A stretch of 64,000 bases of DNA from Nitrososphaerota archaeon (GCA_028866655.1 JAGWHQ010000004.1:7674-71673); one strand, 5' to 3'. Counted from the first letter of the stretch, positions 2,087-43,448 are shown. A program made the numbers and translations. Notes: generated by a model from the sequence alone, not told the origin.

Positions 2087-2107
2087 TTATATCATTTCAA
2101 TAAAAAT

Positions 2108-3256
2108 CTAATCAACAAAAGGATTATCTAATTTCGTTAGTACTTGGAATACCTCTGGCCTCATCATATACTCAGATGGACTCTGTTTATCAAGAATCAT
2201 TGCTCTAAGTTTAGTTCCACTCAGGCTTTCTTGATATTCTGTACCATGTGGACAATTTCTTTCACTTGCAAATGACAAACATTTCCTACAATAGAAAAAT
2301 GCTGGAAAGAAAATTGGTTCTATGCCAATGTCAGGATACAAATCAAATATTTTTTGCGAAGCAAATGGATCATAATATGTACCTACACCTGCATGATCCC
2401 GCCCTATTATGATATTAGTACAGCCAAAGTTTTTTCGCATTATGGAATGGTGTATTGCCTCCTTTGGTCCCGCATACCTCATTTCCGTATGCAATGTACC
2501 AAGATAGCACCTGTTTAGAGGATAATAATACGATATGAGAGTTTCATAAGCAGTAACAATTGCTTCATCTTTGTAATCTCCAGATTTTTTCTTTCCTACA
2601 AGAGGATTAACAAATAATCCATCATGAGTGTTAAGGGATGCTTTTTGAAGCATTTCATGTGCTACGTGTGGAACATTTCTTGTTTGAAATGCTACAATTG
2701 TTTTCCATCCAGCCTTTTGAAAAAACTCTCTTGTTTCAATTGGAGTCTTTCTGTATCTTCTAATTTGAGTCTCATCTGCTCTTTTTACATAATCAATTTT
2801 TCCACCGACAAGAAATTCTTTCATATTCATGGTTTTTGCCACACCAGGATGTTTTGGATCAGATGTGCCATAGATTTTGTTTGAAACTATACTTTTATCA
2901 AAATCATAAACATCTTCCACATGCAAGATGGCAAAATTTTTACCATTCACATTTAGAGCAACATCTTTTGCATCTTTCATTTTTGTGGCAGTATCCTTGT
3001 CTACATCAAGTATGATTGGAATTGTCCATGGTAAATCGTTTGCAAGTCTACCGTGAGAAACTACTTTCTCAAAATCTTCTTGCGTTAAAAATCCTTCAAG
3101 TGGACTAAAGATTCCATCAGCAATATTTTCTATATCATTTGCAAGATCAGCATTAACAGCAATTGAAAACAACTGGCTTGGATCTTCTTTTGTAATCCTG
3201 TTTACTAGTTTTCCACCATGTGGTTTTGCTACACCAATATTTGTCATGTATATCAC
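2108..3256 (-). CDS. sat: Sulfate adenylyltransferase (ATP sulfurylase)
   Basis: [24 protein letters not shown] motifs. Confidence 0.95.
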
Positions 3257-4058: not shown

Positions 4059-5183
4059 ATGTTAGAAAAAACTGTGCTTGTCATTTTTCCATCTATCTAT
4101 ACCTTGAATAAAATAAACAATCTTGCAACAAATGTCTCAAAAATTCTCAAGATGAAAAATCAACGTCATGATGGTGTAAGAAAAAATGAATCACTTGTCA
4201 TTGTAGAAGCAGTTGATCCAGTTCTAGCTTCATCTGCAGTAAATCTCTTATTTGGAATAGATAGAATTGCAATTGCAAAAGAGGTAGACAATAACTTTGA
4301 TTCTGTCTTGTCAGCCATTACAAATACTGCTTTGAGTTTGCTCTTAAAAGGCGAAAAATTTTATATCAAAGTTGAAGGAAAGACAAAAAAATTCCTAGCA
4401 AAAGATTTGGAAATTGCGGCAACCGGGATGCTGGTGGAGAAGAGTATGCATCTTGAGGTAAAACCTGGTTCAGAATCAAACCATGATAGACTCGTATATG
4501 TTTACATCACAGATGCGCATGCCTATGTTTGTATTTTTGTGGACAAGGGATTAAGCGGCATTCCATATAACTCACAAAAAGAAAAAATCCTATGTTGTAT
4601 CCATGATGAGCTTTCTGCGATAGCATGTCTTCAAACCATAAAGATGGGTTTTGAGGTAAAGATATTGATTTGTTATCATAATGAATCAGATTTGCTCAAA
4701 TTAGCGAAGATCATAAACAAAATACTACCAAGAATTATTGAAGAAAATGTTACTCTTCACATCTGTAAGATGAGTGGATCTACAGTAACACCAACTGCAA
4801 TTGCCACAATAACCCAAGTGATGATAGCAATAGCATCAAAGGAAAAGATTGGGAGAATCTCTTTGGGTATATCTCCAATGATCTTTCCAGCATCATTTTG
4901 TGAATACAATGCAAACTTGGTATTTCAGAACAAGATGATTCCATGGTTTTCTCTTTCTGGCATAGATTCTGGAATTTTTGAAAATGCAAAGGAGATTGGA
5001 TTAGAAAAATATATTACAAATTTGGAAAATCTTTGCAAGAAACATCCCAACTACGAGAAAATTTCCATGTCTGAGATATCAAGACATGCAACTAGTACAC
5101 TAAAAACTCTCAAATGCATTCAAGTTATTGCGGGTCCAAAAAATATACATGATATAATTGACTCATTAAAATCAAATCATTGA
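4059..5183 (+). CDS. ThiI-like THUMP-domain protein with degenerate PP-loop
   Basis: ThiI architecture (N-terminal domain, THUMP, 'KGLSGIP' linker) but SGGxDS position reads HDELS. Confidence 0.7.
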   Translation: MLEKTVLVIFPSIYTLNKINNLATNVSKILKMKNQRHDGVRKNESLVIVEAVDPVLASSAVNLLFGIDRIAIAKEVDNNFDSVLSAITNTALSLLLKGEKFYIKVEGKTKKFLAKDLEIAATGMLVEKSMHLEVKPGSESNHDRLVYVYITDAHAYVCIFVDKGLSGIPYNSQKEKILCCIHDELSAIACLQTIKMGFEVKILICYHNESDLLKLAKIINKILPRIIEENVTLHICKMSGSTVTPTAIATITQVMIAIASKEKIGRISLGISPMIFPASFCEYNANLVFQNKMIPWFSLSGIDSGIFENAKEIGLEKYITNLENLCKKHPNYEKISMSEISRHATSTLKTLKCIQVIAGPKNIHDIIDSLKSNH

Positions 5184-5214
5184 GAATTTAAACGGGTCAA
5201 ATTTACTTGCTGTT

Positions 5215-6447
5215 ATGAAGAAGATTGGAGGATTCATCTATCCTTGGGGAAATGGTCATTTTACAAGAATGATGCATCTTGATAATACAATTCAAGACAT
5301 GCTGAAAGATGACATTGAGATGCATTACACAAGTAGTGGTGAGATTTATCAAAAACTATTACAAAAATTTCCCCAGAAAAAAGATGCAATCCACAATATT
5401 GAGATGCCAACACCAATAGATGGTAAAAAGGGTCCCAGCATTGTTTTATCTTCACTTAATTTCCTTTTACCAATATCTGGAAGACCCCCTTTACTTTCAG
5501 TTGTAACCAACTATTTGAAAAAGGAAGCAAGACTTTACAATAGTCAAAAATTTGACCTTGTCGTAAATGATGGTGATGTAGGATCAAACGCAATTGCTCA
5601 ACGAAGAAACATCAAGTGTGTTTTTATTACAAACCAGTTTAGGCCAAAGCTCTGGACCTCTAGATTTTATCTTTATCCCGGAGTACTATATGTATCAAAA
5701 AATATTGAAAAAGCAACAAAGATAGTAGTTGCAGATTCTCCTCCACCTTATACCATATGCGAGTATAATCTCAATTTTCCTGAAAGATTAAAGGAAAAAG
5801 TCGTGTATGCAGGTCATTTTTCAAATGGCATCATGATACATTCCAAGCCGAAATCTAATTTAGAGAAGATAATTGAAAATGTAGATAGTTTTGGATATTG
5901 GATGATAACAGGAAACAAGTCTACAAAGAAAATAACTCTAGAAAATTACAAAAAAGCTTTTTCCAGTTTGGAGATGAGAGAAGAGAGAAGAATAATTTCA
6001 CATGCAAGTGCCGATCCATCTCTGGATAAAGTTTGGGGAAAGGACGGAAAAACATATTCTATTTTAGAAGCATTAGAAAAAAAGATAGATTGGATTCAGA
6101 TAGACATAGGATTTTTGTCAGAACAGGAAAAAGACACTGTTCTTAATTTGTGTAAATATGCAGTGATAAATGGCTCACATACAGCAATGGGAGAGATATT
6201 AGGAGGAAAAGCAAAACCAATCATAGGAATACCAGTCTATGACGAGCACACTAATCAAATAAAGTGGGCACAAGATAGGAATCTGGGAATTCTGGCTACA
6301 ACCGTTAAACAGACTGTCAAAGCAGTTTCTCTAATACACAATGATTACAACAAGTACCAAGAAAATCTTTTGGAATTTTCAAGAAATTATAGTACAGGCG
6401 GTACAAAGAATACAGTAAAAATAATCTCCGAGATGTTAGAAAACTAG
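5215..6447 (+). CDS. GT-B glycosyltransferase (GT28/MurG-like)
   Basis: N-terminal GNGHFTR, C-terminal INGSHTAMGE...PVYDEH donor-binding pattern. Confidence 0.75.
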   Translation: MKKIGGFIYPWGNGHFTRMMHLDNTIQDMLKDDIEMHYTSSGEIYQKLLQKFPQKKDAIHNIEMPTPIDGKKGPSIVLSSLNFLLPISGRPPLLSVVTNYLKKEARLYNSQKFDLVVNDGDVGSNAIAQRRNIKCVFITNQFRPKLWTSRFYLYPGVLYVSKNIEKATKIVVADSPPPYTICEYNLNFPERLKEKVVYAGHFSNGIMIHSKPKSNLEKIIENVDSFGYWMITGNKSTKKITLENYKKAFSSLEMREERRIISHASADPSLDKVWGKDGKTYSILEALEKKIDWIQIDIGFLSEQEKDTVLNLCKYAVINGSHTAMGEILGGKAKPIIGIPVYDEHTNQIKWAQDRNLGILATTVKQTVKAVSLIHNDYNKYQENLLEFSRNYSTGGTKNTVKIISEMLEN

Positions 6448-24147: not shown

Positions 24148-24469
24148 GGTTATGTACAAGTCTGCAAAAAATAATTTTAAAGAAAAATTTTTGAAAAAAT
24201 TGTTTAAAGAAAAATTTAAAAAATAATTTTAAAAAATAAATCAAAAAATATTATTTGAAAAGATCAAATTTGATTTTGTCTCATGATCATCAGTCAAAAA
24301 AATGAATCAACGTGAGAGATTACAATATGCTAATTAGAATATTTTGGTATTAATGAAATATAAAATAGAATTTTTATATTATATCATGATGAAATAACGA
24401 ATTAATAGATTGTACACTCATAGTTAAACCTTTTTATTTATGTTAATCGAAATTCTTATAAGATATTAT

Positions 24470-25384
24470 ATGACTCGCGAATCTTTTGGTTCTGGTGGCC
24501 GTTGCCCTCGTTGTGGAAAAGGCCCAATGGTAACTGATAACACTACAGGAGAAATGTTTTGCGGAGGTTGTGGTTTTGTACTTACAGAGCGCGTAGAAGA
24601 ATCCGGTCCAGAATGGAGATCATTTTCTAAAGAAGAACATGAAGATCGAAGTAGAACTGGAACTCCTACTTCACTTGCAATGCATGACATGGGACTTGCA
24701 ACAATAATTGGTCCTGCTGACAAGGATGCATCAGGAAAACCACTTTCTGCATCAATGAAGAGTACAATAGAGAGACTCAGAACTTGGGATAGCAGAAGCC
24801 AAGTTCATGAACCAGTAGATAGAAACTTTAGACAAGCCTTCAGCGAACTTGATAGATTAAAAGATAAACTTGCATTATCTGATGCAGTAATTGAAAAGAC
24901 TGCTTACATTTACAGAAAAGCACTTGACAAAGGTCTTGTCAGAGGCAGATCAATTCCAGGACTTGTAGCTGCTGCACTATACGCAGCATGTAGAGATACT
25001 GAAACTCCAAGGACACTTACAGATGTTGCAAATGGAATCAACATCAAACGAAAAGATGTTGCCAGATGTTACAGATTATTATTGCGAGAACTTGATCTGA
25101 AAATGCCAGTTGTTGATCCAATAAAATGTGTAGCAAGAATTGCAAGTAAAGCAGGCTTGAGCGAGAAAACAAAAAGAAGAGCTTTGCAGATTCTAAAAGA
25201 TGCAGCTGAAATTGAAATTTCAGCTGGAAAAGATCCTATGGGACTTGCAGCTGCTGCACTATACTTGTCATGTGTTATGAACGGAGAAAACAAAACACAA
25301 AAGGATGTTGCACAAGCTGCTGGAGTAACTGAAGTTACAATCAGAAATAGATACAAGGGATTGAAAGAATCACTCAAACTCTAA
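24470..25384 (+). CDS. tfb: Transcription initiation factor IIB
   Basis: Zn ribbon CPRC...CGGC, GPEWRSF, two cyclin repeats, VTEVTIRNRYK; start ATG 24470. Confidence 0.97.
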   Translation: MTRESFGSGGRCPRCGKGPMVTDNTTGEMFCGGCGFVLTERVEESGPEWRSFSKEEHEDRSRTGTPTSLAMHDMGLATIIGPADKDASGKPLSASMKSTIERLRTWDSRSQVHEPVDRNFRQAFSELDRLKDKLALSDAVIEKTAYIYRKALDKGLVRGRSIPGLVAAALYAACRDTETPRTLTDVANGINIKRKDVARCYRLLLRELDLKMPVVDPIKCVARIASKAGLSEKTKRRALQILKDAAEIEISAGKDPMGLAAAALYLSCVMNGENKTQKDVAQAAGVTEVTIRNRYKGLKESLKL

Positions 25385-25436
25385 ATTTTTGTAAAATCAT
25401 TTTTCAATCAAGATAATTTTTACTTTCTAGTGGTTC

Positions 25437-25568
25437 AAAAATTAATGGCGTGGCCCTTGTTCGTAGACAAACAGAGATTACCTCTTTTTATCCCACCCAT
25501 GTGGGATTCACAATTCAAGTCTACGGAGCCACGCTCTCTTAAGCAGTAGATTTTACATCTTTCTGCAT
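25437..25568 (-). ncRNA. Candidate structured RNA, element E1 (homologue of E2)
   Basis: ATGCAGAAAGATGTAAA 5' motif; stems GCGTGGCTC/GGGCCACGC, CGTAGAC/GTCTACG, ATCCCAC/GTGGGAT, AGAG/CTCT; own TATA box and 3' T-tract. Confidence 0.7.
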
Positions 25569-25590
25569 TATTTATCATAATACATCATCA

Positions 25591-25598
25591 TATTTATC
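25591..25598 (-). promoter_or_regulatory. TATA box of element E1 (GATAAATA, preceded by BRE-like ATGAAAT)
   Basis: Ends 23 nt before the conserved ATGC start at 25568. Confidence 0.55.
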
Positions 25599-25768
25599 AT
25601 TTCATATGTATTTTTACATATTTTTAAAATATTTACATAAAATATTTCAATAAACATAGACATTGTTTACGATCACTAGATTGCTATAATATGCATTTTT
25701 GAAGATTCATCAAAATGAGTTGCTTGTCTTCGACAGACTAATTTGATACAGTATGTGATCAGACATGT

Positions 25769-26512
25769 ATGAAACTTTCTGGCAAGGTTGCAATTGTTAC
25801 AGGAGGTAGTAGAGGCATTGGAAAAGCTACGGCAATGTTACTTGCACAACATGGAGCAAATGTAGTAATCACATCAAAAGACAATACCAATCTTCAAAAC
25901 GCTGCAGCTGAAATGAAAAATGTTATAGCAATATCTGGAGACATTAGAAAAAATACAGATGTAGAAAATGTTGTAAAAAATACTTTGGAGACTTTTGGTA
26001 AGATTGACATTCTAGTAAATAATGCAGGTATTTTTCCCAAAGTAAAACCTCTACATGAAATTTCTGAAGAAGAATGGAATGACATCATAGATGTAAATTT
26101 AACGGGGCAGTTTCGTTTTACAAAAGCCGCAATACCTCATTTGATGAAAACGAGTGGTTGTATTGTCAATGTTTCATCAGATGCGGGGTTGAAATCATTT
26201 GAAAATTTTGAAGCAGATGCATATACTGCATCAAAGGGAGCACTAGTTTTACTTACAAAAGCATGGGCCGTAGAATATGCCAAATACAAGATACGTGTGA
26301 ATTGCGTCTGCCCTGGAATTGTGGAAACTGATATGACAAAGCCATATCTTGGAAATGAAGCTGACAGAGAAATGGCAATAGCAGAGCATCCAATTGGGAG
26401 AATAGGAATACCGGAGGATGTTGCAAGGGCAATATTCTATCTTGTTTCAGAGGATTCTTCATGGATTACAGGTGCAATTTTACCCGTAGATGGTGGAATC
26501 ATTACTAAATAA
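25769..26512 (+). CDS. Short-chain dehydrogenase/reductase (FabG-like)
   Basis: TGGSRGIG, NNAG, YTASK. Confidence 0.92.
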   Translation: MKLSGKVAIVTGGSRGIGKATAMLLAQHGANVVITSKDNTNLQNAAAEMKNVIAISGDIRKNTDVENVVKNTLETFGKIDILVNNAGIFPKVKPLHEISEEEWNDIIDVNLTGQFRFTKAAIPHLMKTSGCIVNVSSDAGLKSFENFEADAYTASKGALVLLTKAWAVEYAKYKIRVNCVCPGIVETDMTKPYLGNEADREMAIAEHPIGRIGIPEDVARAIFYLVSEDSSWITGAILPVDGGIITK

Positions 26513-26554
26513 TTATACTAATAAAATTAATAGAACCTATTCTAAGGTTATATC

Positions 26555-26773
26555 GTGACCCCAAAAAAGAAGAGTGCACTCAAGGTAATTATCATGCTTT
26601 CAATCATTTGGTTTGCCTCAGCATTACCTGTACCTTTCATATGGTCCAATCCAAGTCCTCAACAATCTGAACAGTTCAAGACCTATCTGGAAATAGCAGC
26701 CTTGATTTCTGTGCCATTTATTGCAATGGCAATTGCCTGGACATTAAAGCCAGAACTTACCACACGTGGCTAG
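26555..26773 (+). CDS. Small two-TM membrane protein
   Basis: 72 aa, GTG start, two hydrophobic helices. Confidence 0.6.
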   Translation: MTPKKKSALKVIIMLSIIWFASALPVPFIWSNPSPQQSEQFKTYLEIAALISVPFIAMAIAWTLKPELTTRG

Positions 26774-27513
26774 CCAAGAAACTCTACTGCCCCTAGTCCT
26801 TCGGGGGTTGCTTTAATCCACCTGGTTCTTCCAATCCTTTCAACTTCAATGAATCTCCACTCGTTTAGAAGTGGCTGGATGATATTTTTATCAAGACTTG
26901 CAAATCTTGCTTGTTGAAAATTTTCCTCTCTTGCATTTACCATGATGAGTTTTCTTTCGTATGCAATTTTTGCCATCTCCTTCTTGGTTATTTTTCCATT
27001 ATTTTCTTGTATTATTTTCAAGGCCTGTACCAGTACAGGTTTTGGAGTATGAATTTCATAAGCTGGCAACTTGACAACTGATTTGAGTCCAGATGATAGC
27101 TGTTCCCCCTTTACACTAGAGTAACTTTCCGGTTCTGCATAATATGGAGTAAGTTTTATCTTTCCTTGAAACATCATGCATGCCATCATACATGCAATTG
27201 CTTGTATTTTTGATCCAGAAGAACAGTTTACAAAAATATCATTGCCATCTTCTTTTTGTACAATTTCTCGTAATGCCTTTAGGATCTTGAATAGATCAAA
27301 TCTATTGGAATGTGCTACTTGGACTTCGATCTTTTCTTTTTTTAGCTGAGCTCGAATTTTTTCCATGAATCCTTGGGCTTGATCCTTTGATGGTTCTGCG
27401 TGCATCAATAGCCACACTCTATCGGCTTTCATTTGTTTTGCAGGAATTGCAATTCGATCAATTTCAAAACCTACAGGAGCTACATGTACACGGAGGTTTA
27501 CTATTTTACTCAT
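26770..27513 (-). CDS. CARF-like domain + wHTH transcriptional regulator (HFX_2341/DUF6293, Csa3-like)
   Basis: VHVAPVGFEIDRI, IFVNCSSGSKIQAIA, C-terminal wHTH ending RTRWIKATPEG; start ATG 27513. Confidence 0.75.
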   Translation of the reverse strand: MSKIVNLRVHVAPVGFEIDRIAIPAKQMKADRVWLLMHAEPSKDQAQGFMEKIRAQLKKEKIEVQVAHSNRFDLFKILKALREIVQKEDGNDIFVNCSSGSKIQAIACMMACMMFQGKIKLTPYYAEPESYSSVKGEQLSSGLKSVVKLPAYEIHTPKPVLVQALKIIQENNGKITKKEMAKIAYERKLIMVNAREENFQQARFASLDKNIIQPLLNEWRFIEVERIGRTRWIKATPEGLGAVEFLG

Positions 27514-27649
27514 GTTAGTATGTATAGTTATCATACTATGGTGATGATATATAATAATTGTGCATTGTATACAGAAACATGCAACAAAAACTCACATCAG
27601 AGCAAAGCAAAGTCTCTGTTTATCCTAGAATAAGATCAGTCTTTGAGAA

Positions 27650-28210
27650 CTAATTCTTCATCCACGGGGTAGATTCCAAGTAATCTATGGATTTTATCAT
27701 CTCGTCAAGCTTTGTAGCAACCGCAGTCACTGCTTGAAATTCTTCATACATCATTTTTTCTTCATCTTGTGATAGTACTTGTTTTTCTGCAGTGTCAAAG
27801 AACTTGTCTTCTTTTGTTAAATGATCATCGAGGTAAATTGCATACGCCTTGAGAAATCTTGCAACAGGTTCTCTTTGATCTTCTCCTGACTTCCACTTTT
27901 GTAGATGCTTTGAAATGTTTGATGCGATTCTTCTTCCAAATTCATGTTCAATCATAAACACTCGGATCTCTTGCTTGAGAGAATCATAACTTGCAACACA
28001 AGGAAAATACTGGTCTTCTTCTCTTGCATAATGTATTGCATCCAAAAATTCCGACATGATTGAAACCATTATTTGCATATCAGAAAATGGGATATCATTA
28101 TTTTCATTTAATGCAGTATAACATCTAGTGATTATTTTTTCTAGTCTGCGTATTTGTCTATGATCGTTTCGTAATGTTTCAGTTCCGCTCATATCAGGTC
28201 CTGATATCAT
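27650..28210 (-). CDS. Hemerythrin (HHE) domain protein
   Basis: NDHRQI, IHYAREED, IEHEFG, DHLTKED. Confidence 0.85.
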   Translation of the reverse strand: MISGPDMSGTETLRNDHRQIRRLEKIITRCYTALNENNDIPFSDMQIMVSIMSEFLDAIHYAREEDQYFPCVASYDSLKQEIRVFMIEHEFGRRIASNISKHLQKWKSGEDQREPVARFLKAYAIYLDDHLTKEDKFFDTAEKQVLSQDEEKMMYEEFQAVTAVATKLDEMIKSIDYLESTPWMKN

Positions 28211-29049
28211 TAGGGATTTACTGTAAATAGTATTACCTTTTTTGGGTTGTATTGGATTATGGCAAAATGTGGCATGGAAGAGCCAACACCATAATATCCA
28301 GCAGGACCTCCAAGGCCTAATCGTATGAGATAATCATTTGTTGGATTGATTACAATTTCTTTGCTTTCCAATATGTGTCCTGCAATTTTTTCTTTTTTTG
28401 GTTCAAGATTAGAGTAGATCTCACGAATTTTACCTGCTTGATGGACTAGGGCAGCCTCCATGTGCTGATGTCCGCACAGTATGATATGATTACGTACATG
28501 CTTTCCTACTTCTCCAAAAGCAGACGATGCTTTGTAATGATATCCGTGATAGCTAAAGAACTCAAAGCCTTCATCGGTGAGTCGTTGCCAATTTCTTTGA
28601 TATAACCAGGCTTCACTATTGGCATTTTTTGGGGTTATCTTCTTGGGATCCAATGGTCCTCCATGAACACAGAAAAGACCATTTTTTGTATCTACAAACT
28701 CTTGATTGCCAAATGTACCATCTTTATTCTGTTTGAAGAATGCCAAGTCTTCAGAATCAAGCTTTTCATGTGCATCCATGCTTTCAAGAGAACTGGCACT
28801 CACTTTTTTTCCACTCAAGAATCCTTCGTCATGGTTACCTATCACAGAAAATATTGGATAGTTTTTTTCAAGGGAGCGTAATTTTGATATGACTTGTTTT
28901 GGGTGAATGCCACGTTCAAGCAAGTCACCTAGATTGATGATTCTAGAAAAAGAACCATACTTTTTTACAAACTCATCACTTGATACAGTCTGGATTATCA
29001 GGTCAAGCCCGTTGAGGTCTGCATGAATGTCAGAAAAAACTAGATCCAA
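28210..29049 (-). CDS. Calcineurin-like metallophosphoesterase
   Basis: SDIHAD, LGDLLE, GNHD, VHGG, CGHQH. Confidence 0.88.
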   Translation of the reverse strand: MDLVFSDIHADLNGLDLIIQTVSSDEFVKKYGSFSRIINLGDLLERGIHPKQVISKLRSLEKNYPIFSVIGNHDEGFLSGKKVSASSLESMDAHEKLDSEDLAFFKQNKDGTFGNQEFVDTKNGLFCVHGGPLDPKKITPKNANSEAWLYQRNWQRLTDEGFEFFSYHGYHYKASSAFGEVGKHVRNHIILCGHQHMEAALVHQAGKIREIYSNLEPKKEKIAGHILESKEIVINPTNDYLIRLGLGGPAGYYGVGSSMPHFAIIQYNPKKVILFTVNP

Positions 29050-29273
29050 TACAACTTGTTGTTTTTTAGCCTAATTTGAAATTTTTTGTGTCAAGAATTG
29101 GTTTGTAGAAAGATGTATGTGTAGATTTGTGTCCAGAATTGATATGATGTCATTCTAGGATTTTAGAATAAGAAAGTAAAAGTTTGATCTCAAATAAATA
29201 ACAAGTTTGGGATACATTATCAAATTAGCTTGCATCCTCATTATCCTACCCTGTGGGGATGTCAGCCGATTTA

Positions 29274-30191
29274 TTATTGAGAATCAATTTTTTGAACAGA
29301 CTGTTTTGGGATATTAAGTTCTTGAAATGTGTCAGGATGAATTATCTTGGTCAAAATTTCAAGACCTGTTACAGTTCTTGGACCTGGTTTGCTAAAGTAC
29401 TCATTTGCATTCACTGCATAAACTTCTCCTCTGGTTACTGCCTTGATATTTTTCCATTTGTTGTTTTCAAGTAATTTTTCATATTCATCAAGTGTTCGTG
29501 ATACATCAAATCCACATGGCATTAGAATTATGATATCAGGATCAAATTGTATCATTTCTTCAATCTGTATTTTTCTTGATCTGTCTCCAGTTGCGCTTAT
29601 TCCGTTTATTCCACCTGCAATTTCCACCATTTGAGGAACCCAATGGCCTGCTGAGAAGAACGGATCAAGCCATTCTATGCATAACACCTTTGGTCTTGAA
29701 ATTTTTGGGGTATTTTTGATATAGTCAATTCTTTTCTTTAATTTTATAACAAAGTCTTTTGCCTTGTCTTGTTTTCCTACTTTATCTCCTACCTCAATGA
29801 TGTTTTCCAGTATGCCGTCAAGATTTTTTGGATCTAGAACAAGGACCTCTGGTTTGCCTCCAAGCAGTGTGACTGCTTTGTTTATCTCTCTTGTATAAGG
29901 GGAACATACTTCACAGATTCCTTGAGCTACAATCAGATCTGGATTTGCTTGCTTGAGGACTTGTTCATCTAATATGTAGATGTCTTTTCCTGCATTTACT
30001 AGTTCCATTACCTTGCTGTCAATTTCTTGGCTAGACATTTTTTCTGGGTCAAAGGAGGAATGGATAACCCTTGGCTTTGCCTTGGCCTCTGTTGGATAAT
30101 TGCATTCATGTGTTACTGCTAATACTTGATCTCCCACTCCTAGCTCATACAATATTTCAGTTGCACTTGGAAGAAAGGAGACTAGTTTCAT
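29274..30191 (-). CDS. BtuF-like cobalamin/iron-chelate binding protein, no signal peptide
   Basis: VSFLPSATEILYELG, THEC, PDLIV, EWLDP...GHWVP, RPGPR-like KPGPR. Confidence 0.85.
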   Translation of the reverse strand: MKLVSFLPSATEILYELGVGDQVLAVTHECNYPTEAKAKPRVIHSSFDPEKMSSQEIDSKVMELVNAGKDIYILDEQVLKQANPDLIVAQGICEVCSPYTREINKAVTLLGGKPEVLVLDPKNLDGILENIIEVGDKVGKQDKAKDFVIKLKKRIDYIKNTPKISRPKVLCIEWLDPFFSAGHWVPQMVEIAGGINGISATGDRSRKIQIEEMIQFDPDIIILMPCGFDVSRTLDEYEKLLENNKWKNIKAVTRGEVYAVNANEYFSKPGPRTVTGLEILTKIIHPDTFQELNIPKQSVQKIDSQ

Positions 30192-30305
30192 AGATGTATC
30201 ATCTATGATATTTGTTTTAAACATGTATTCAAGTTTTAGATGATTACAAATTTCTCTTATACATATTCCTCAAAACTTAAGAATAGCCAAGGCTCGATTT
30301 GGTTG

Positions 30306-31181
30306 ATGATTGATTTTACAGTTATTGGTGGACCGTCTTCAGAACAATTAGCAAAAAAGATTGCCTCTAAATTAAAATCAAAGTTTATCAGTTGTGAACT
30401 GCGGACCTTTCCAGACGGGGAAAGCAAGGTCACACTCAAGGGAAAACCTAGTGGAAAGATTCTGGTAGTACAATCAATCTATCCTCCAGTTGACTCGAAC
30501 CTGCTTCGCTGTCTTGCAATAACATCGCAAGCAAGGACATTTTCTTCTCACGTGTATGTTATCATACCATATATCGGATATGCAAGACAAGACAGGCAAT
30601 TTCTTCCAGGCGAGATTATTACAATGGAACTTGTTGCAAAAATGTTCAAGTCGGCAGGTGCAACCAAGGTAATTGTGGTTGATATCCACAGTACTACCGC
30701 ACTAGAGCATTTCCAGATTCCTGCAAAAAATATCAGTGCAGTTGAAGAGCTTGCAAAACATTTCAAGAAAATGTCACTTAACTCTCCTCTTGTAGTATCA
30801 CCAGACAAGGGAGGAGTAGAACGAGCAAGAAACTTTGCAAAATCACTCGGTGTTGATTATATCGCACTAGAAAAACACAGAGACCGAAAGACTGGAAATG
30901 TTGCAATAAAATCCAAAGGCCTTGATGGAGTCAAGGGTCGAGACATTATACTAGTTGATGACATGATAAGTACTGGAGGCAGCATTGTAAAAGCTGCAGA
31001 ATTTTTAAAGAAACAAAAAGGCGGCAAGATCTATGCATGCTGCACACATGCATTACTAATTGGAGATGCAGAGAAAAATATCATAAAAGCTGGAGTTACA
31101 AAGATAATCAGCACAAATACCATACCAGGTAAGACATCAGTTGTTGATGTCTCATCAATAATTGCAAAGGCAATAACCTGA
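30306..31181 (+). CDS. prs: Ribose-phosphate pyrophosphokinase
   Basis: FPDGES, YARQDR, VSPDKGG, VDDMISTGG; start probably ATG 30306. Confidence 0.95.
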   Translation: MIDFTVIGGPSSEQLAKKIASKLKSKFISCELRTFPDGESKVTLKGKPSGKILVVQSIYPPVDSNLLRCLAITSQARTFSSHVYVIIPYIGYARQDRQFLPGEIITMELVAKMFKSAGATKVIVVDIHSTTALEHFQIPAKNISAVEELAKHFKKMSLNSPLVVSPDKGGVERARNFAKSLGVDYIALEKHRDRKTGNVAIKSKGLDGVKGRDIILVDDMISTGGSIVKAAEFLKKQKGGKIYACCTHALLIGDAEKNIIKAGVTKIISTNTIPGKTSVVDVSSIIAKAIT

Positions 31182-32114
31182 ATGTCAAGCTTTTTTGTAT
31201 TACAGAAACAATACGAAGACCTTGCAAGGGATGAGATAATTGCAATATCAAAAAGTTATGATCCAAAGTCAAACATAAAATCAGAGCCAAGACTTGTCAT
31301 GGTATCATCAAAGGTTCCATGGCAAAAGATAGCAAGCAGGGCAACATTTGCAAGATATTCTGGAACCATAGAAAATACATTTGATGATATTACAAAAATC
31401 GACTTGTCTATACCTACACCAAAATCATTTGTATGCAGGACAATAAACTTGTCATCAAAAAATACAGGCTCGTCTGCACTTGAAAGACAAGCAGGTGGGA
31501 TACTCTCAAAAAGATGGGGCTCCAAGGTTTCCCTCTCAAACCCTCATGTTATAGTATATCTCATCATTACAGATTCCAAAAAATATCTAGGATATGCAGA
31601 CTGTCAGATTTCACCAAGTCATCCAAAAAAGATAATCAAGCACCCGCATGAACTTGATACAAAACTTGCAAGATGTATTGTTAATTTATCAGGATTAAAG
31701 GAAAAAGACACTCTCTGTGATCCTTTTTGTGGCACTGGAACAATTTTGCTTGAAGCTGAATCCATGGGGATTAATGGTATCGGAATGGATTTTGATAAAA
31801 CAATGTGCAAGATAACAAGAAAGAACTTGGCTGCAAATGGATTTGATTCCCAGGTGATAAATTCTGGCTATGAAAAAATACAGGACATCATGGGTACAAT
31901 AGACGGTATTGTTACCGACTTGCCATATGGAATATCATCAAGGTCATCTGTCTCTCCAAAGAAATTGATTCAAGATTTTGTCTCAGTCATACCAAAGAGA
32001 AAAAAACTTGTAATTGTATACAAGAAGGGTCTTGAAGTGGATGATATCAGCAAAGCAAAGAAATACGAGATCTACAGACACAAGAGCTTGACAAGAGTGA
32101 TTGCGGTAAGATGA
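31182..32114 (+). CDS. THUMP-domain tRNA guanine-N2 methyltransferase (Trm11/TrmG10-like)
   Basis: [11 protein letters not shown] motif, TDLPYG. Confidence 0.8.
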
Positions 32115-33010
32115 AGCTAGTATTTTTGGGAACATCAGCAGCACAACCAACTGCAGAGCGTGGCATGACATGCATCTGTTTGGTACTTGACAGGGAGATA
32201 CTGATGTTTGATGCAGGAGAAGGCGCACAGATTGCATTTTCAAAAGCTAAACTTGGCTGGAATAAAAAAATGAAAATATTTGTGACACACTTACATGGAG
32301 ACCATTGTGTTGGGATACTTGGCCTATTGCAGACCATGTCGTTGCAGAACAGGACAGAGTCTGTTGACATCTACGGTCCAACTGGAATTGAAGAGTTTAT
32401 CGCGGCAAATCTCAAGATACTAAATTTTGGCCTGACATTTCCTGTCAGAATAACTAGAATCAAGGAGGGACTAGTCTTTGATGATTCTGGATTTAGCGTT
32501 CACGTATGTGAGGCAGAGCATTCCATTCCTGCCTACTCGTATTTATTTACAGAAAAAGACAGGCCTGGCAAGTTTTATCCTGAGAAAGCAAAGGAGCTTG
32601 GCATCCCAGAGGGAAAGCTCTGGCATGATCTTCAAAGCGGCAATGAGGTAAAAGTTGGTGATAAACTGGTAAGACCATCTGATGTAACTGGAGAAAAACG
32701 TCATGGCATCAAGATTGGCATATCAGGGGACACAAGACCTACTGCCAAGCTTGTAGAATTTTTCAAGGGTTGCAATTACATGACATTTGATTCTACATAT
32801 TCTGATGCATTACAAGACAAGGCAAAAGAGAATTTCCACTCGACATCAAAGGAAGCAGCAGAGCTTGCCAAAAAAGCAGGTGTCTTAAATCTTATCTTGA
32901 CACACTTTTCTGCAAGGTATGAAGATGTGCAAGAGCTTGTCAATGAAGCAAAGACAATTCATGATTCCGTTACTGCTGCAAAAGATCTCTTAGAGATTGA
33001 CATCAAGTGA
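32111..33010 (+). CDS. rnz: Ribonuclease Z
   Basis: FLGTSA, THLHGDH, exosite [23 protein letters not shown]. Confidence 0.95.
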
Positions 33011-33735
33011 AAATGTGGGATATCATATCTAACAAATTAAGACAGGCAGAAAAAATTGTATTTGTAACAGGAGCAGGAATTTCCCAAGAGAGTGGAATTC
33101 CTACATTTCGCGGAAAAGATGGTTTCTGGAGAAAGTACGATCCAATGAAGCTTGCAACAATAGATGCATTCTATGAAGATCCAAAACTTGTATGGGAATG
33201 GTATGAAGAGAGGAGAAAAAACATTCTAGATGCAAATCCAAACCTTGGTCATGTTTCCATTGCAGAACTTGAAAAACATAAAAAAATTTCTGTCCTGACA
33301 CAAAACATTGATGGTCTTCATCAGAAGGCCGGAAGCTCGCATGTTTACGAATTGCATGGAAGTATCATTACAATCAAGTGCACCGTATGTGATTTCAAAG
33401 ATTCCATCACATCTGGATTTTCTCATCTTCCACCACTCTGCAAATGTGGAAACATACTGCGACCTGATGTTGTATGGTTTGGTGAAGCTTTACCGCAGGA
33501 TGTGTGGAAGTCTGCAATGGAAGAGGCAGTCTCTTGTGACATCATGATTGTTGTTGGAACCTCACTTGTAGTATCTCCTGCAAATCTATTGCCAGTATAT
33601 GCCAAGCAAAATGGAGCCACTCTAGTTGAGGTAAATATTGAGGATACTCCCATGTCGTCAAACATGGACCTGTCCCTTAGGACCTCTGCTGCAAAGGCAC
33701 TTCCAGGACTAGTTGATATTGTATCCAGGCTCTAG
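33007..33735 (+). CDS. cobB: NAD-dependent protein deacylase (sirtuin)
   Basis: [23 protein letters not shown], Zn CxxC pairs, RPDVVWFGE. Confidence 0.95.
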
Positions 33736-33850
33736 TTTGTGTTTTTTCAGATTAATTTGATTAGTTGTGAGTAAAATGTTGATTATTTTGGATATGAGAA
33801 CAATAATTTATACAAAATAAAATATATTCATGTAAGAAATCATACTAATT

Positions 33851-33858
33851 ATTAAATA
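33851..33858 (+). promoter_or_regulatory. TATA box of element E2 (ATTAAATA)
   Basis: Ends 23 nt before the conserved ATGC at 33881, same spacing as E1. Confidence 0.55.
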
Positions 33859-33880
33859 AGAGAATAACGTATAAAGAACA

Positions 33881-34024
33881 ATGCGGAAAGATGCAAATTC
33901 TGGCAAATGAATTTGCGTGATCCTGTGAAAAATGGTACATAGTGAAGTACAATTCGTTGTACGAAGCGGCAAGAGAAAGCTTTTGCCTATACAGGGTCAC
34001 GCCATCACACCTTTTCCTGTTTTT
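33881..34024 (+). ncRNA. Candidate structured RNA, element E2 (homologue of E1)
   Basis: ATGCGGAAAGATGCAAA 5' motif; 12-bp stem 33915-33926/33991-34002; GTACAA-TTCG-TTGTAC; GGCAAGAG-AAAG-CTTTTGCC; 3' T-tracts. Confidence 0.7.
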
Positions 34025-34066
34025 ATAAAATTCAAGTTCAATCGATACTGAAATTTTCTTTGTATT

Positions 34067-34939
34067 TTATTGTGATAAAATTCCAGTTATGGTAGAATTT
34101 TGCACATCTGATGGTGCATATGCAGATGCATGCAATGTTCCGTAAATTGCATTGTTTATTGTCATTTCTATGATGTGTGGAGTGTTTGGAACATCGTTAA
34201 CCTGGGTTGAAAACTGGGAAGAATAAAATGTTCCAGAGAACAAGACAGTGTCACTGTTTTTCATTGTGACTGTAACTGATTTTGTCTGGCCAGATGTATC
34301 ATCAAAATTTAACACTGCATTGTTTCCTTGGTTTACCATGGTAAGCTTGACTGTTTGATAGTAAGATGGAAGAGATGGTAAGGTAGTTGAGCTTGTACCA
34401 CCATCACTAGAATAAGGAGAGATTATCAGACCACTTGGAACATCTACTGGTGGAGAATTTGGTTTTGCTGTAAGTTTTGTTACCTGCACAGGATCATCTA
34501 CATTTGATTGACATTGATCAAGTTGAATTATTCCAGTTAGCTGTTTTATTCCATTTATTGTCTGGGCCAATTCTGGAACAGAGATTTGACATGTATTACC
34601 ATTTTTTTCAAAGACCTGTCCAGTATAGTTTTGTCGAGATACATATTGTGGAGCAAGTTGATAAACAGAAGTTGAATTGTTATTTGGAGCCATATTTAGA
34701 ATAGAATTTGCACTAGACAATATACCAGAATTGTTTTCAAGCAATTTTGCACCAAGGCCTACGTCCTTGACTGCTAGCTTGGAATCATTAATCACTTGCT
34801 TGCTGGTTGCAACTTGATCAATCTTGCCTTTTACAGTATCAATTGATGATGGTATTTTCTGAAAGAATTTTGATGAGCTTGGTACAAAGATAGCTACTGC
34901 AGCTATAATGATTCCAATAATGATCAGTTTACCTATCAA
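34067..34939 (-). CDS. Membrane-anchored exported hypothetical protein
   Basis: N-terminal TM, S/T/P/N-rich beta domains. Confidence 0.7.
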   Translation of the reverse strand: MIGKLIIIGIIIAAVAIFVPSSSKFFQKIPSSIDTVKGKIDQVATSKQVINDSKLAVKDVGLGAKLLENNSGILSSANSILNMAPNNNSTSVYQLAPQYVSRQNYTGQVFEKNGNTCQISVPELAQTINGIKQLTGIIQLDQCQSNVDDPVQVTKLTAKPNSPPVDVPSGLIISPYSSDGGTSSTTLPSLPSYYQTVKLTMVNQGNNAVLNFDDTSGQTKSVTVTMKNSDTVLFSGTFYSSQFSTQVNDVPNTPHIIEMTINNAIYGTLHASAYAPSDVQNSTITGILSQ

Positions 34940-35007
34940 ACAGTTACTTTTCTTGAGGTATTCATAAAAAAGCGCAAATGCACACTAGTTGAGCAAGTGT
35001 AGTAAAT

Positions 35008-35430
35008 TTATCCAGTTATTTGAGTCAGATCAGGTGCAAGCCAGTCCACTACCTTCTCAAGGTCCTTTGAATGAAGTATCACCTTGATTGGGCCCATGGC
35101 AGACTCTTCTGCTTCCTCGCATACTGCAATTATATCCACATAGGCTGCCTGCTTGTTGAGGTAAAACCAAGTGGTGTCTCCTTTTGTATTAAATCGCATC
35201 TGTCTTCGGTAGATCTTGTTGGTTCGATGTTTTTTGATTGTCTCTTGGATTTTTACAAGCGATTCCAACTGGTTTGAGGTTGCCTTGATGCTTCCTTCCT
35301 TGTATTGGTAATCTGTTTCTAGTATGACATGCGATACAGCAAGTCTGACTTTATCTGGATCTTCGGATGGATTTACTGCTGCATAGACTTCGATCTTGCA
35401 GGTAACATTTGGAATCTTCAATTCATCCAA
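35008..35430 (-). CDS. UPF0201 RNA-binding protein (ribosomal L5-like fold)
   Basis: VNPSEDPDKV, FYLNKQAAYV, MGPIKV. Confidence 0.85.
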   Translation of the reverse strand: MDELKIPNVTCKIEVYAAVNPSEDPDKVRLAVSHVILETDYQYKEGSIKATSNQLESLVKIQETIKKHRTNKIYRRQMRFNTKGDTTWFYLNKQAAYVDIIAVCEEAEESAMGPIKVILHSKDLEKVVDWLAPDLTQITG

Positions 35431-35963
35431 CCTTTGATGACTCGATATGAAGCGTCAACAAGTTCTTGAATTGTCATGTTGTTATTTGAAATTGTTTCGT
35501 CTGCAAGTGCAATTGATTCGCTCATGCCCACTCCAATTTCTCTTGAATCCCTTTTTGTAAAATCTTCACGATCAGATGGAGCATCAGATCTGCCCCTTTC
35601 TGTTAGGAATTTGTATCGTATATCACCAGATGCATGGATTGCAAGAACTTTGACTGTACCAATTTTTTTCAATACATCAACTTCTGCAAGTGATCGTACC
35701 CCATCTACAAGTATAACATCAGACTTGGAATTTTGTATTCCATCTTTTATGAGCTCAGCCACTGCACCTGGACCATTTTTTTCTCGCAGCTCAATCATAA
35801 GCTTGCCAAGATTAGCCCCTGTTGGATCTATCTGTCTTCTTGTTGCTTCTGCCCTTACAGCATCACCCATTGTAATTTTATCAAAGCCTTTTGATTTCAA
35901 ACCCTCAGCTATTGTGGTCTTTCCAGCTCCTGGCATTCCTGTAAGACATACGATTAGTTTCAC
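35418..35963 (-). CDS. P-loop nucleotide kinase (COG0237, dephospho-CoA kinase-like)
   Basis: LTGMPGAGKT, MGDAVR, DGVRS, ERGRSD; start probably GTG 35963. Confidence 0.8.
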   Translation of the reverse strand: MKLIVCLTGMPGAGKTTIAEGLKSKGFDKITMGDAVRAEATRRQIDPTGANLGKLMIELREKNGPGAVAELIKDGIQNSKSDVILVDGVRSLAEVDVLKKIGTVKVLAIHASGDIRYKFLTERGRSDAPSDREDFTKRDSREIGVGMSESIALADETISNNNMTIQELVDASYRVIKGWMN

Positions 35964-36036
35964 ACTCACAAACTTTATCCTCCAGTCTATGAAGCTACCG
36001 GAAATTATTATAGATGCCACAATCTGAATTCCACTA

Positions 36037-36576
36037 ATGCGTGCCTTTATTGCAGTAGAGATTCAGGATGAGAGTGTACTTGATGCAATTACCAAGATTC
36101 AATCTGAATTCAAGATAAGGGCAACACCAGTAAACAAAAAAAATATGCATTTTACATTGCTTTTCTTGGGAGAGATAACAGAAGAGACTGCTGCAAATGT
36201 AAAAAAAGCACTAGATACAATTTCATTTAAAAAAATAGATGTAAACTTTACACATGTTGGAGCATTTCCAAATCCAAGATCTGTACGAGTTATTTGGATT
36301 GGCGTAGATGAAACATCTTCAAAACAGTTGGTAGAGCTTGCAATGCAAGTAGAAAAAAAATTGTCGCCTCTTGGATTTAGGTCTGACAAGCCTTTCAAGC
36401 CACACCTAACAATATTTAGAATAAAGAACAAGATAGATGATATTTCAGACATGATGGAAAAATTCAAGAAAATTGATCTAGGAAGATATACCATGACAGA
36501 ATTAAAGTTCAAGCAAAGCATCTTAACCCCTAGCGGGCCAATATACTCTGATTTACAGGTGATTTTAGCTAAATGA
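36037..36576 (+). CDS. thpR: RNA 2',3'-cyclic phosphodiesterase (2H family)
   Basis: MRAFIAV, HFTL and HLTI motifs, GPIY. Confidence 0.93.
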   Translation: MRAFIAVEIQDESVLDAITKIQSEFKIRATPVNKKNMHFTLLFLGEITEETAANVKKALDTISFKKIDVNFTHVGAFPNPRSVRVIWIGVDETSSKQLVELAMQVEKKLSPLGFRSDKPFKPHLTIFRIKNKIDDISDMMEKFKKIDLGRYTMTELKFKQSILTPSGPIYSDLQVILAK

Positions 36577-37907
36577 GGAACGTTCTGGAGCAGGCAAGAA
36601 AGATATCAATTCCCACAAGACAAGAAGAGGAAAAGATAGAAGCACTTGCAAAAAGTCTTCTTGACTTGGTAAAAAAAGAGATTGTAAAATATCCAGAGAT
36701 CAGCTCAGTAGAGCTTGGTGGATCTTTTGCAAAAGGAACTTGGCTCAAGGGCAAGCTAGACCTTGACATTTTTGTCAAGATGAAAAAAGACACAAACGAA
36801 AAACAATTCGAAGAGATTGGCAGAGAAATTGGTTTTGAATCCATGAAAAAGTTTGGCCCCTATGTTAGATATTCAGAACATCCATACGTTGAGGCAGTAG
36901 TTCAATGCACCAAGGTAAATGTCGTTCCTTGCTATGATGTGGAAATAGGTCAGTGGAAGAGTGCAGCTGACAGGTCATCGTTTCATACCAAATTCATACT
37001 TGAAAAATTAGATGCAGAAAAAAAGAATGAGGTAAGACTGCTCAAAAAGTTTCTCAGGGGAATTGGAATCTATGGTGCAGAAATTGCAATAGAAGGGTTT
37101 GGAGGATATGTCTCTGAGGTTTTAATTTACCATTACGGAAGTTTTATGAAAACTTTGGAGGCTGCCGCAAACTTTTCCCAAGGACAAATCATTGGTAGCC
37201 CCACAAAAAAATTTGAGACAGCATTAGTATTGATAGACCCAATAGATAGCAACAGGAATCTTGGTACTGCAATCTCTGCTCAAAACCTTGGCAAGTTCAT
37301 ACTTGCAGCAAGGGCATATCTGAAAAAACCTTCACTTGAATTTTTCAATGGTAAAAAATTGTTGCCAAACACAAAGAACCTACAAAATGTTCTAGTTGTC
37401 AAGTTCAAGTACAAACCTAGAAGTCCTGATATCATTTGGGGTCAGGTAAAAAGGGGGGCAACTGCACTTTCTGGCCAACTTGAGCTTGGTGGATTTCAGG
37501 TATTGCGTAAGGGTGCCATAACAGATGAAAAGTCAGAGGCTGCAATGCTTTTCCTATTACATTCTACAACAATTGAAAAATTCATGGTCAAAAATGGTCC
37601 AGACGTATTTAGAAAACCAGAATCAGAGAACTTTATTTTGAGAAATTCCAAGAATAACATAACCTGGGTTGACGAACAAGGAAGGATCTTGTCACTGCAG
37701 CAAAGAGAATTTTATGATGCAAAAAAATTCCTCCAGTCACTTTTGAAGAAAAATCTGACAAAAGCAGGCATCCCAAGCGGTATTATTTCAGACATGAAAT
37801 GTGGCTTTGTGATATCAGTGGGTCATCAGGTGACAAGCAAATCCATTAAAAAGGCTCTGGCTGAGTTAACCTCTACCAATGAACTCATCTTTGGTTCCAA
37901 CAAGTAA
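36573..37907 (+). CDS. cca: Archaeal class I CCA-adding enzyme
   Basis: GSFAKGTWLKGKLDLDIF, EHPYV, DRSSFH, GFGGYVSE, IDPIDSNRN. Confidence 0.95.
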   Translation: MRNVLEQARKISIPTRQEEEKIEALAKSLLDLVKKEIVKYPEISSVELGGSFAKGTWLKGKLDLDIFVKMKKDTNEKQFEEIGREIGFESMKKFGPYVRYSEHPYVEAVVQCTKVNVVPCYDVEIGQWKSAADRSSFHTKFILEKLDAEKKNEVRLLKKFLRGIGIYGAEIAIEGFGGYVSEVLIYHYGSFMKTLEAAANFSQGQIIGSPTKKFETALVLIDPIDSNRNLGTAISAQNLGKFILAARAYLKKPSLEFFNGKKLLPNTKNLQNVLVVKFKYKPRSPDIIWGQVKRGATALSGQLELGGFQVLRKGAITDEKSEAAMLFLLHSTTIEKFMVKNGPDVFRKPESENFILRNSKNNITWVDEQGRILSLQQREFYDAKKFLQSLLKKNLTKAGIPSGIISDMKCGFVISVGHQVTSKSIKKALAELTSTNELIFGSNK

Positions 37908-43371: not shown

Positions 43372-43448
43372 TGGTGGGGCCGGCCGGACTTGAACCGGCG
43401 ACCTCTAGCACCCCAGGCTAGCATCATACCAAGCTAGACTACGGCCCC
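43372..43448 (-). tRNA. tRNA-Pro(GGG), CCA encoded
   Basis: GGGGCCG acceptor stem, anticodon arm CTAGC-CTGGGGT-GCTAG, T-loop GGTTCAAGTCC, ends CCCCACCA. Confidence 0.97.

Follow-up and report, generated by a model that had tools for sequence, protein, structure and literature searches.

A structured small RNA gene with a nine-codon open frame downstream of Sir2 in Nitrosotalea, and the apparently undescribed archaeal family to which it belongs

What is encoded in the 331-nt spacer that separates two convergent genes, Sir2 and a gene for a 290-aa protein, in a 64-kb stretch of archaeal DNA (JAGWHQ010000004.1:7674-71673; hereafter the window, G+C 36%)? Judging from its Sir2 homologues and genome loci, the host is a Nitrosotalea, i.e., an acidophilic ammonia-oxidising archaeon (Nitrosopumilaceae). 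The spacer holds an element, E2, which a preliminary description had presented as a promoter-bearing three-way junction that functions as RNA and possibly as a switch. E2 lies 145 nt past the Sir2 stop codon and has no co-oriented gene downstream; the next gene is convergent (34067-34939, minus strand), and E2 is therefore not a 5' leader. We are highly confident that E2 is a true gene for a structured RNA with transcription of its own, belonging to a family of which we found no description. The explanation that we consider best overall, held with middling confidence, is a stand-alone small RNA gene of ~136 nt, a Nitrosotalea-specific duplicate, in which a leaderless micro-ORF (a very short open reading frame) couples the fold of the RNA to ribosome loading. 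The coordinates of all features are collected in Table 1.

Part of the evidence that E2 acts as RNA comes from its orthologues. Searching 80 Sir2 loci with nhmmer, we found E2 3' of Sir2, in the same position and orientation, in 37 loci, all from Nitrosotalea-like genomes, and in none of those from Nitrosotenuis, Nitrosarchaeum or Nitrosopumilus. When 35 orthologues were aligned (alignment A1), RNAalifold recovered the three-way junction that had been described, with seven pairs changed on both sides. Across the four helices, standard pairs occupy 98.3% of cells, compared with 25-51% after shifting the partners by 1-3 columns; the 54 compensatory cells observed were reached by none of 500 shuffles. 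Compensatory changes affect three of the six pairs of hairpin a (UA/CG, AU/GC, AU/CG), and hairpin b shows G-U/G-C and A-U/G-U exchanges across orthologues. The 12-bp closing stem with its one G-U pair and both hairpins were present as described. Most orthologues have C.A in place of the 12th closing-stem pair (T33926-A33991), which leaves a conserved stem of 11 bp; the CGCC on its 3' side is invariant across the whole family.

Many G-U pairs in the helices of E2, and in those of a paralogue, E1, introduced below, would be C.A on the opposite strand and fit the plus (RNA) strand only, which identifies the plus strand as the functional one. The minimum free energy of region 33880-34030 on this strand is -45.4 kcal/mol, versus -31.3 +/- 3.6 for 200 dinucleotide shuffles, none of which was as stable (z = -3.88), and the reverse strand folds more weakly. 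A terminal helix joining the 5' and 3' ends in this minimum-energy fold (GGAAAG/CUUUUCC) did no better than slid controls and was rejected.

Two further features of the preliminary description fared less well. The UUCG tetraloop of hairpin a, offered as a sign of function, is confined to the closest relatives, and other orthologues carry AAAAAA, UGUGU or CAAAG instead; as the loop is not conserved, it is no evidence of function. An 8-bp hairpin, thought to be an alternative to another 5' hairpin, does exist (arms GCAAATTC/GAATTTGC, 33893-33900/33909-33916, 100% complementary according to the repeat finder) and does overlap the main stem by 2 nt, having G33915 and C33916 in common with it. However, it is no alternative: it is the family's own 5' hairpin, remodelled in E2 (hereafter P2) within the conserved nine-codon frame discussed below. 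P2 shows no covariation because it is nearly invariant, although its loop-closing pair (C33900-G33909) is broken in 8 of the 35 sequences, and since the two overlapping nucleotides are invariant as well, comparative data do not decide between P2 and the closing stem. Switch-like alternative folding thus found no specific support: the 8-bp hairpin does not covary, no co-oriented gene follows, and Rfam offers no riboswitch match.

E2 also has its own promoter, as had been proposed. The arrangement [AT]TAAATA-22 nt-ATG, with exact spacing, is found in all E2 orthologues and in all E1 copies. When TATA-ATG spacings were counted throughout the window, few sites emerged, and the strict motif with this spacing occurs only at E1 and E2. 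A bacterial promoter and terminator scan, a kind not applicable to archaea, gave no useful information.

RNA sequencing, which the preliminary description had suggested as a check, yielded contigs in two data sets. In a mine-drainage metatranscriptome (X29), one contig matches 33880-34015 exactly and is extended by 22 nt of purines alone (GAAAGGAGAGAAAAGAGAGGAA), which are absent from genomic DNA. Genomic contigs from similar sites are collinear through 34015 and past it, and the purine stretch is therefore non-templated. The archaeal exosome adds A/G-rich tails, and the stretch resembles a tail of this type, a chimeric contig being the alternative. In soil RNA-seq (X28), a contig spanning 33892-33996 reaches a depth of 731, with the sequencing adapter abutting 33892, versus a depth of 7.8 for the TFB mRNA of the same organism. 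At the 3' end, a U-run follows the closing stem in every family member, and the X29 contig stops at the first U4 (34015). Some metatranscriptome contigs extend beyond the U-tract, but these also take in DNA upstream of the promoter and may represent DNA carry-over. In two mine-drainage DNA metagenomes (X1, X2), k-mer depth is 100-390x across 33844-34005 versus 8-9x in the flanks, which probably reflects co-occurring strains with an identical element and differing flanks; RNA carry-over is the other possible source. Covariation, G-U pairs that fit the plus strand only, and metatranscriptome contigs with discrete ends together bear out the claim that E2 functions as RNA.

What the preliminary description missed is that E2 has a paralogue, contains a micro-ORF and belongs to a phylogenetically widespread family. 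A covariance model built from A1 (R1), which scores E2 itself at 165 bits, matched the minus strand of the window at 25425-25571 with 30 bits (E ~5e-6). This paralogue, E1, lies between the TFB and SDR (short-chain dehydrogenase) genes and folds with z = -4.6; it is probably what the preliminary description had called Element E1. E1 and E2 have in common the 5' sequence AAUGCRGAAAGAUG, a GCGUGG...CCACGCC stem, and a 5' hairpin followed by a three-way junction. TFB loci collected by protein identity yielded orthologues of E1 (in L081-L106) from ten Nitrosotalea genomes, two other lineages, Nitrosarchaeum, Cenarchaeum symbiosum and one Nitrosopumilus metagenome-assembled genome; the Nitrosocaldus TFB locus holds no E1. 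E2 occurs in Nitrosotalea alone and is therefore the derived copy, E1 being the ancestral member.

The layout of the family can be written as [AT]TAAATA, 22 nt, ATG, 24 nt, TAA/TGA, 3-4 nt, GCGU, 79-90 nt, CGCC and a U-run, and E2 shows every one of these elements, with covarying helices. Scanning a metagenome collection with this pattern returned 120 loci, of which ~116 are clear members and 4 false, and 2.9 million viral contigs gave two chance matches only. In total, the family amounts to 161 unique sequences, with 71 representatives at <90% identity. It is apparently undescribed, literature searches having found no published account of such an RNA family, and it is present, as a rule in a single copy per genome, throughout the Nitrosopumilales.

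Alignment of 61 E1 sequences (A3) gave a structure with a 5' hairpin, stem a (10 bp) and stem b (7 bp), the latter offset by a bulge on the 3' side; of its two further hairpins, hairpin a is variable, whereas hairpin b (GAGAGG-NAA-UCUCUC) is near-invariant and has its counterpart in hairpin b of E2. In this alignment, 89.4% of cells are paired versus 40-54% with slid partners, and 19 of the 28 pairs change on both sides, a figure matched by 0 of 500 shuffles; the 5' hairpin, too, covaries as RNA. A search of A3 for tertiary or pseudoknot covariation gave a signal swamped by lineage correlation. E2 departs from this structure in that stem b and the bulge are missing and the 5' hairpin is rebuilt as P2; the conserved single strands also differ between the two. 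Another model, R2, had a poor automatic consensus (14 pairs), and no conclusions were drawn from it. Four divergent members (L116, L184, L176 and L134) have very different 5' hairpins, with peptides such as MLVQRRMMD, MLVKPQKMA and MRHDKQTID, and differ in their neighbours as well, among which are a TPR protein and a phasin-like protein.

In most lineages E1 faces a convergent gene for a 142-aa protein (e.g., 4953-5381 on the plus strand in L099, with E1 at ~5378-5514 on the minus strand, and likewise in most of L109-L227). The stop of this gene lies 0-3 nt from the E1 closing stem, which means that its transcript and that of E1 must overlap at their 3' ends. At its N terminus the protein has a signal or anchor; it also carries a conserved FVPNGDSPQ motif and matches no Pfam domain. 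As a candidate partner of the RNA it was rejected, since it looks secreted or membrane-anchored, bears no RNA-binding signature, and is absent from the Nitrosotalea group-1 E1 loci.

The 5' end of these RNAs raises a question of its own, namely whether the short frame that begins there is read. Its ATG, 24-nt spacing and stop do not vary among the 35 orthologues of E2 or among any of the E1 copies obtained by synteny; having been gathered by synteny or nhmmer, these sets were not selected for the frame; in the metagenome set, the retrieval pattern leaves the inner codons unconstrained. The predicted peptides are highly diverse and not conserved (Table 1; also MSLVTKTNE and MLVQRRMMD). Over all sets, 0 of 87 unique 30-mers contain an in-frame stop, as against 47 in the +1 frame and 24 in the +2 frame, and the chance of all frames being open, after clustering to 7-17 well-separated types, is 2e-2 to 5e-5. 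Moreover, the 24-nt length is constant and free of indels, whereas other loops differ in length, and the frame persists in E2 despite the rebuilt 5' hairpin, the stop codon now lying inside a stem. On balance we lean slightly towards selection on the frame as a frame. A second ATG at 33891 opens another nine-codon frame (33891-33920, plus strand) that ends at a TGA inside GCGUGAUCC; it is not conserved, the orthologues having GCGUGGCC, and was set aside as chance.

The position of the frame is that of a leaderless message. The distance from TAAAT to the ATG (+28) equals that of the divergent SDR protein gene in marine loci, and the X29 contig starts at 33880, a single nucleotide upstream of the ATG. 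In archaeal leaderless mRNAs, a TATA box ~26-29 nt upstream sets a transcription start that lies at the start codon or within a few nucleotides of it. The family therefore has a leaderless-mRNA layout, the contig start being an indirect sign of where transcription begins. We infer that the transcript starts at the AUG or 1 nt before it.

How might fold and frame act together? Conservation is strongest at the junction base (GCGU/ACGCC), in hairpin b and in the A-rich junction strand; that these parts are kept in sequence and do not covary points to recognition by a protein or to a tertiary contact. The folded junction, with its invariant hairpin b and GCGU/ACGCC base, would be the working module, probably binding a protein and less likely a ligand. 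Because the geometry of the 5' end equals that of the neighbouring leaderless protein gene (SDR), ribosomes could load there, and since the frame is open and the peptide not conserved, it is the act of translation that would matter, not its product. A ribosome that translates as far as the stop would have to melt the 5' hairpin; in E2, where the stop is just 4 nt from the closing stem, it would have to melt that stem too, and the three-way junction would collapse. In folding predictions with the first 43 nt held open, mimicking a ribosome at the stop, the E2 closing stem is wholly lost; in E1, stem a is lost, and stem b and the junction remain. The micro-ORF could thereby make the availability of the module, or the stability of the RNA, depend on ribosome engagement. 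Our tentative proposal is thus a trans-acting RNA that is gated as ribosomes load on the leaderless micro-ORF, the gating itself being rather less likely than not. A more specific version, which we regard as doubtful, would make the RNA a leaderless 'mRNA mimic' found only in ammonia-oxidising archaea, whose frame switches a junction effector between folded and unfolded states, thereby reporting or buffering translational capacity, with the Nitrosotalea copies specialised. A seed-target idea was also considered and rejected, matches to the 5' 14-mer or its complement being at chance level in the window.

Several observations weigh against this explanation. Codon-position entropy shows no third-position bias, and the frame is largely conserved as nucleotides for RNA reasons, which leaves few truly free codons in the open-frame statistic. 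The G of the AUG is base-paired, as is the stop codon in E2, which should hinder leaderless initiation. Translation of the micro-ORF is supported indirectly, by the always-open frame, and none was observed. The metagenome pattern required TATA box, ATG, stop, GCGT and CGCC, and its matches cannot prove those features. As for expression, the depth of E2 in X29 (3.2) is below that of TFB (13.6), and no E2 contig was found in four rhizosphere metatranscriptomes (L014 runs), in which flanking genes stand at 2-3x; size selection against small RNAs or low expression may account for the latter. High abundance is thus seen in one run, and the metatranscriptome contigs carry no strand information. Lastly, the RNA has no known partner, target or ligand.

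Some of these points are shared by the main rival, a purely non-coding structured RNA, such as a ribonucleoprotein component or a protein sponge, which is never translated. In that case the AUG and URA would be recognition or structural nucleotides, and the open frame would be a by-product of conservation at the RNA level. We consider this possible, if on the unlikely side. The missing third-position bias and the non-conserved peptide agree with it, as do the conservation of large parts of the ORF (UCUAUCGAC, GCAAAUUC) as nucleotides, the covariation of the 5' hairpin as RNA, and a start codon partly buried in the stem. Yet ATG, stop and 24-nt spacing were kept in E2 although the hairpin that they flank was rebuilt, the segment has no indels while other loops vary, frame 0 is the only one free of stops, and the AUG sits exactly where the start codon of a leaderless mRNA would be. 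At the opposite extreme, E2 could be an mRNA for a functional nine-residue peptide, with the junction as a stabilising 3' untranslated region (UTR). Here the leaderless layout and the fixed-length open frame would be expected, but the peptides are not conserved (compare MRKDANSGK, MQKDVKSTA and MPKDIIPID with MSLVTKTNE and MLVQRRMMD), and the RNA downstream covaries and is better conserved than the frame; this makes a functional peptide highly improbable.

The setting of E2 between convergent genes suggests two further explanations, neither of which invokes the frame. A ligand-sensing or otherwise conditional terminator, in effect the earlier switch proposal moved to a new place, might control read-through of E2 or E1 into the convergent gene and so produce antisense RNA. 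Conserved nucleotides in a three-way junction would suit a sensor; the 3' end of E1 abuts or overlaps the stop of the 142-aa gene in most lineages, E2 faces the 290-aa gene, and some contigs do pass the U-tract. However, Rfam gives no riboswitch match, and no gene follows in the same orientation. E1 and E2 have different convergent partners, and Nitrosotalea E1 loci have lost the partner while keeping the RNA. The read-through contigs include promoter-upstream DNA and may thus be DNA carry-over, and the discrete RNA ends at the first U4. We judge such a terminator improbable. Alternatively, E2 might be a passive cis element, i.e., the 3' UTR of Sir2 or its convergent neighbour, or a terminator structure of either, as its place shortly past the Sir2 stop and the conserved synteny with Sir2 would allow. 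The separate TATA box at fixed spacing and an RNA contig that starts at 33880, outside Sir2, argue against this; the element lies ~1.4 kb from Sir2 in locus L029, and E1 has the same layout among different neighbours. We give a passive role very little credence.

Least probable of all, and largely refuted, is that E2 is a known kind of catalytic or guide RNA. An ACA triplet 5 nt past the closing stem in the window copy and the three-way-junction architecture had made an archaeal H/ACA small RNA (sRNA) or a self-cleaving ribozyme conceivable. The triplet, however, varies among the 35 orthologues (AUA, AAA, UAC, UUA, ACG) and E1 lacks it; neither a pseudouridylation pocket nor a K-turn is present, inspection revealed no tandem G.A motif, and the junction lies ~20 nt from the triplet rather than the expected 14-16 nt. 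Likewise, no CUGAUGA/GAAA core was found on either strand, and E1 and E2 differ in their conserved single strands. The self-cleavage raised in the preliminary description found no counterpart among the Rfam ribozyme families. In Rfam 15 (4227 models, among them riboswitches, ribozymes, 5S rRNA, SRP, RNase P and snoRNAs), the best match to region 33700-34100 was STnc30, with 21 bits against a gathering threshold of 120 (E = 0.36), and the E1 loci of Nitrosarchaeum, Cenarchaeum, Nitrosopumilus and L095 had no match at E <= 1; neither a gathering-level scan of the window nor a scan at E <= 10 of the region and four E1 loci assigned E2 or E1 to any family. ARAGORN predicted 0 tRNA or tmRNA genes in 25300-34200. 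The sole gathering-level Rfam match in the window is a tRNA gene at 43375-43448 on the minus strand (63.9 bits).

Table 1. Features of E2, its paralogue E1 and their flanking genes (window coordinates), with predicted micro-ORF peptides
Feature	Position	Strand	Details
E2 transcript	33880-34015	+	~136 nt; from RNA contigs, promoter spacing and U-tract
TATA box	33852-33858	+	TTAAATA, 22 nt before ATG
Leaderless micro-ORF	33881-33910	+	ATG + 8 codons + TGA, MRKDANSGK*; predicted from sequence
5' hairpin P2	33893-33916	+	GCAAAUUC / GAAUUUGC, 8-nt loop; contains stop codon
Closing stem	33915-33926 / 33991-34002	+	GCGTGATCCTGT / ACAGGGTCACGC; 12 bp, one G-U (T33921-G33996); repeat finder
Closing stem, 5' strand, conserved part	33915-33925	+	11 pairs, 99.5% paired, 3 pairs with compensatory changes
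Closing stem, 3' strand	33992-34002	+	followed by invariant C34003
Junction strand J1	33927-33946	+	GAAAAA..GUAYAURGU; invariant columns in A1
Hairpin a	33947-33962	+	GUACAA-UUCG-UUGUAC; variable loop
Hairpin b	33968-33987	+	GGCAAGAG-AAAG-CTTTTGCC (3' arm also given as CUUUUGCC); 98.9% paired
Oligo-U termination region	34012-34024	+	UUUU 34012-34015, UUUUU 34020-34024
Sir2 gene	33007-33735	+	upstream of E2
Gene for 290-aa protein	34067-34939	-	N-terminal membrane anchor; convergent, downstream of E2
Paralogue E1	25430-25569	-	between TFB and SDR genes; ATG 25568-25566; ORF MQKDVKSTA*
TFB gene	24440-25384	+	E1 flank
SDR gene	25769-26512	+	E1 flank
E2 peptide (window)			MRKDANSGK*
E1 peptide (window)			MQKDVKSTA*
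E1 peptide (Nitrosarchaeum)			MPKDIIPID*
E1 peptide (Cenarchaeum)			MSVNPSSID*
E1 peptide (Nitrosopumilus)			MPMDVISID*

The wider neighbourhood contains genes with RNA-related annotations. Around E2, a cluster of RNA-processing genes (31182-37907) encodes a UPF0020-type methyltransferase, RNase Z, a PF01877 RNA-binding protein, LigT (2'-5' RNA ligase-like) and the CCA-adding enzyme, and a PRPP synthase gene is also among the surrounding genes. We take the neighbourhood to be a coincidence because E1, the older family member, sits elsewhere. Closer to E1, the gene at 26770-27534 (minus strand; 12332-13132 in L081) has orthologues with HFX_2341_N, CARF-like (Csa3_N, CARF_Card1) and winged-helix domains and possibly encodes a cyclic-oligonucleotide-sensing regulator; a CRISPR array was not noticed nearby. 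The N. okcheonensis locus (L089) carries an inserted IS605 OrfB/TnpB-type gene (Cas12f1-like_TNB; 1872-3077, plus strand) that other Nitrosotalea loci do not have.

The Nitrosopumilales are among the most abundant archaea of oceans and soils and drive nitrification, and almost nothing is known of their RNA-based regulation. The family described here appears to be a core component that annotation has missed, conserved from Cenarchaeum to Nitrosotalea with an invariant layout and covarying helices, and its RNA depth is very high in at least one metatranscriptome. Should the micro-ORF be translated, the family would link a leaderless micro-ORF with a regulatory role to a structured RNA domain, a combination rare among archaea. 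In practical terms, the analysis provides alignments ready for covariance models (A1-A3) and a simple search pattern with few false matches.

How, then, does the family compare with known systems? Like an H/ACA sRNA, the window copy of E2 is a hairpin-type RNA with an ANA-like triplet and a U-rich end, but the triplet is not conserved and neither pocket nor K-turn is present. Like tmRNA (SsrA), it is an abundant structured RNA with an open frame of ~10 codons flanked by helices; unlike tmRNA, the family lacks a tRNA-like domain and CCA end, and its AUG is 5'-terminal whereas tmRNA has an internal resume codon. A riboswitch would place its aptamer in the leader of a co-oriented gene, and the genes downstream of E2 and E1 are convergent. 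Leader-peptide attenuators, which act on translation or transcription (e.g., ermCL, the cat/cmlA leaders and trpL), likewise have a tiny ORF with a non-conserved peptide and an overlapping hairpin, and in both cases the position of the ribosome would set the folding downstream. In E2 the overlap of ORF and hairpin is present, but the transcript ends at the U-tract, ~105 nt past the stop, no co-oriented gene follows, and the frame is leaderless and archaeal. Orphan structured RNAs found by comparative genomics (OLE, raiA, GOLLD and IMES) are bacterial or of unknown host and are in Rfam, whereas the present family is archaeal, ~140 nt long, built on an invariant promoter-AUG-stop layout, and absent from Rfam 15; it resembles them in having been found through conservation and covariation, in its high environmental expression, and in that their function, too, was unknown at discovery. 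Dual-function small RNAs with a short ORF, such as SgrS/SgrT, RNAIII/delta-haemolysin and SR1/SR1P, are known from bacteria. The E family differs from these in its archaeal host, its leaderless nine-codon frame and non-conserved peptide, and in having a three-way junction in place of a seed and terminator, with no known base-pairing seed or target. What it has in common with them is a stand-alone, abundant small transcript that joins a short frame to a conserved structured part and ends in a stem followed by U residues.

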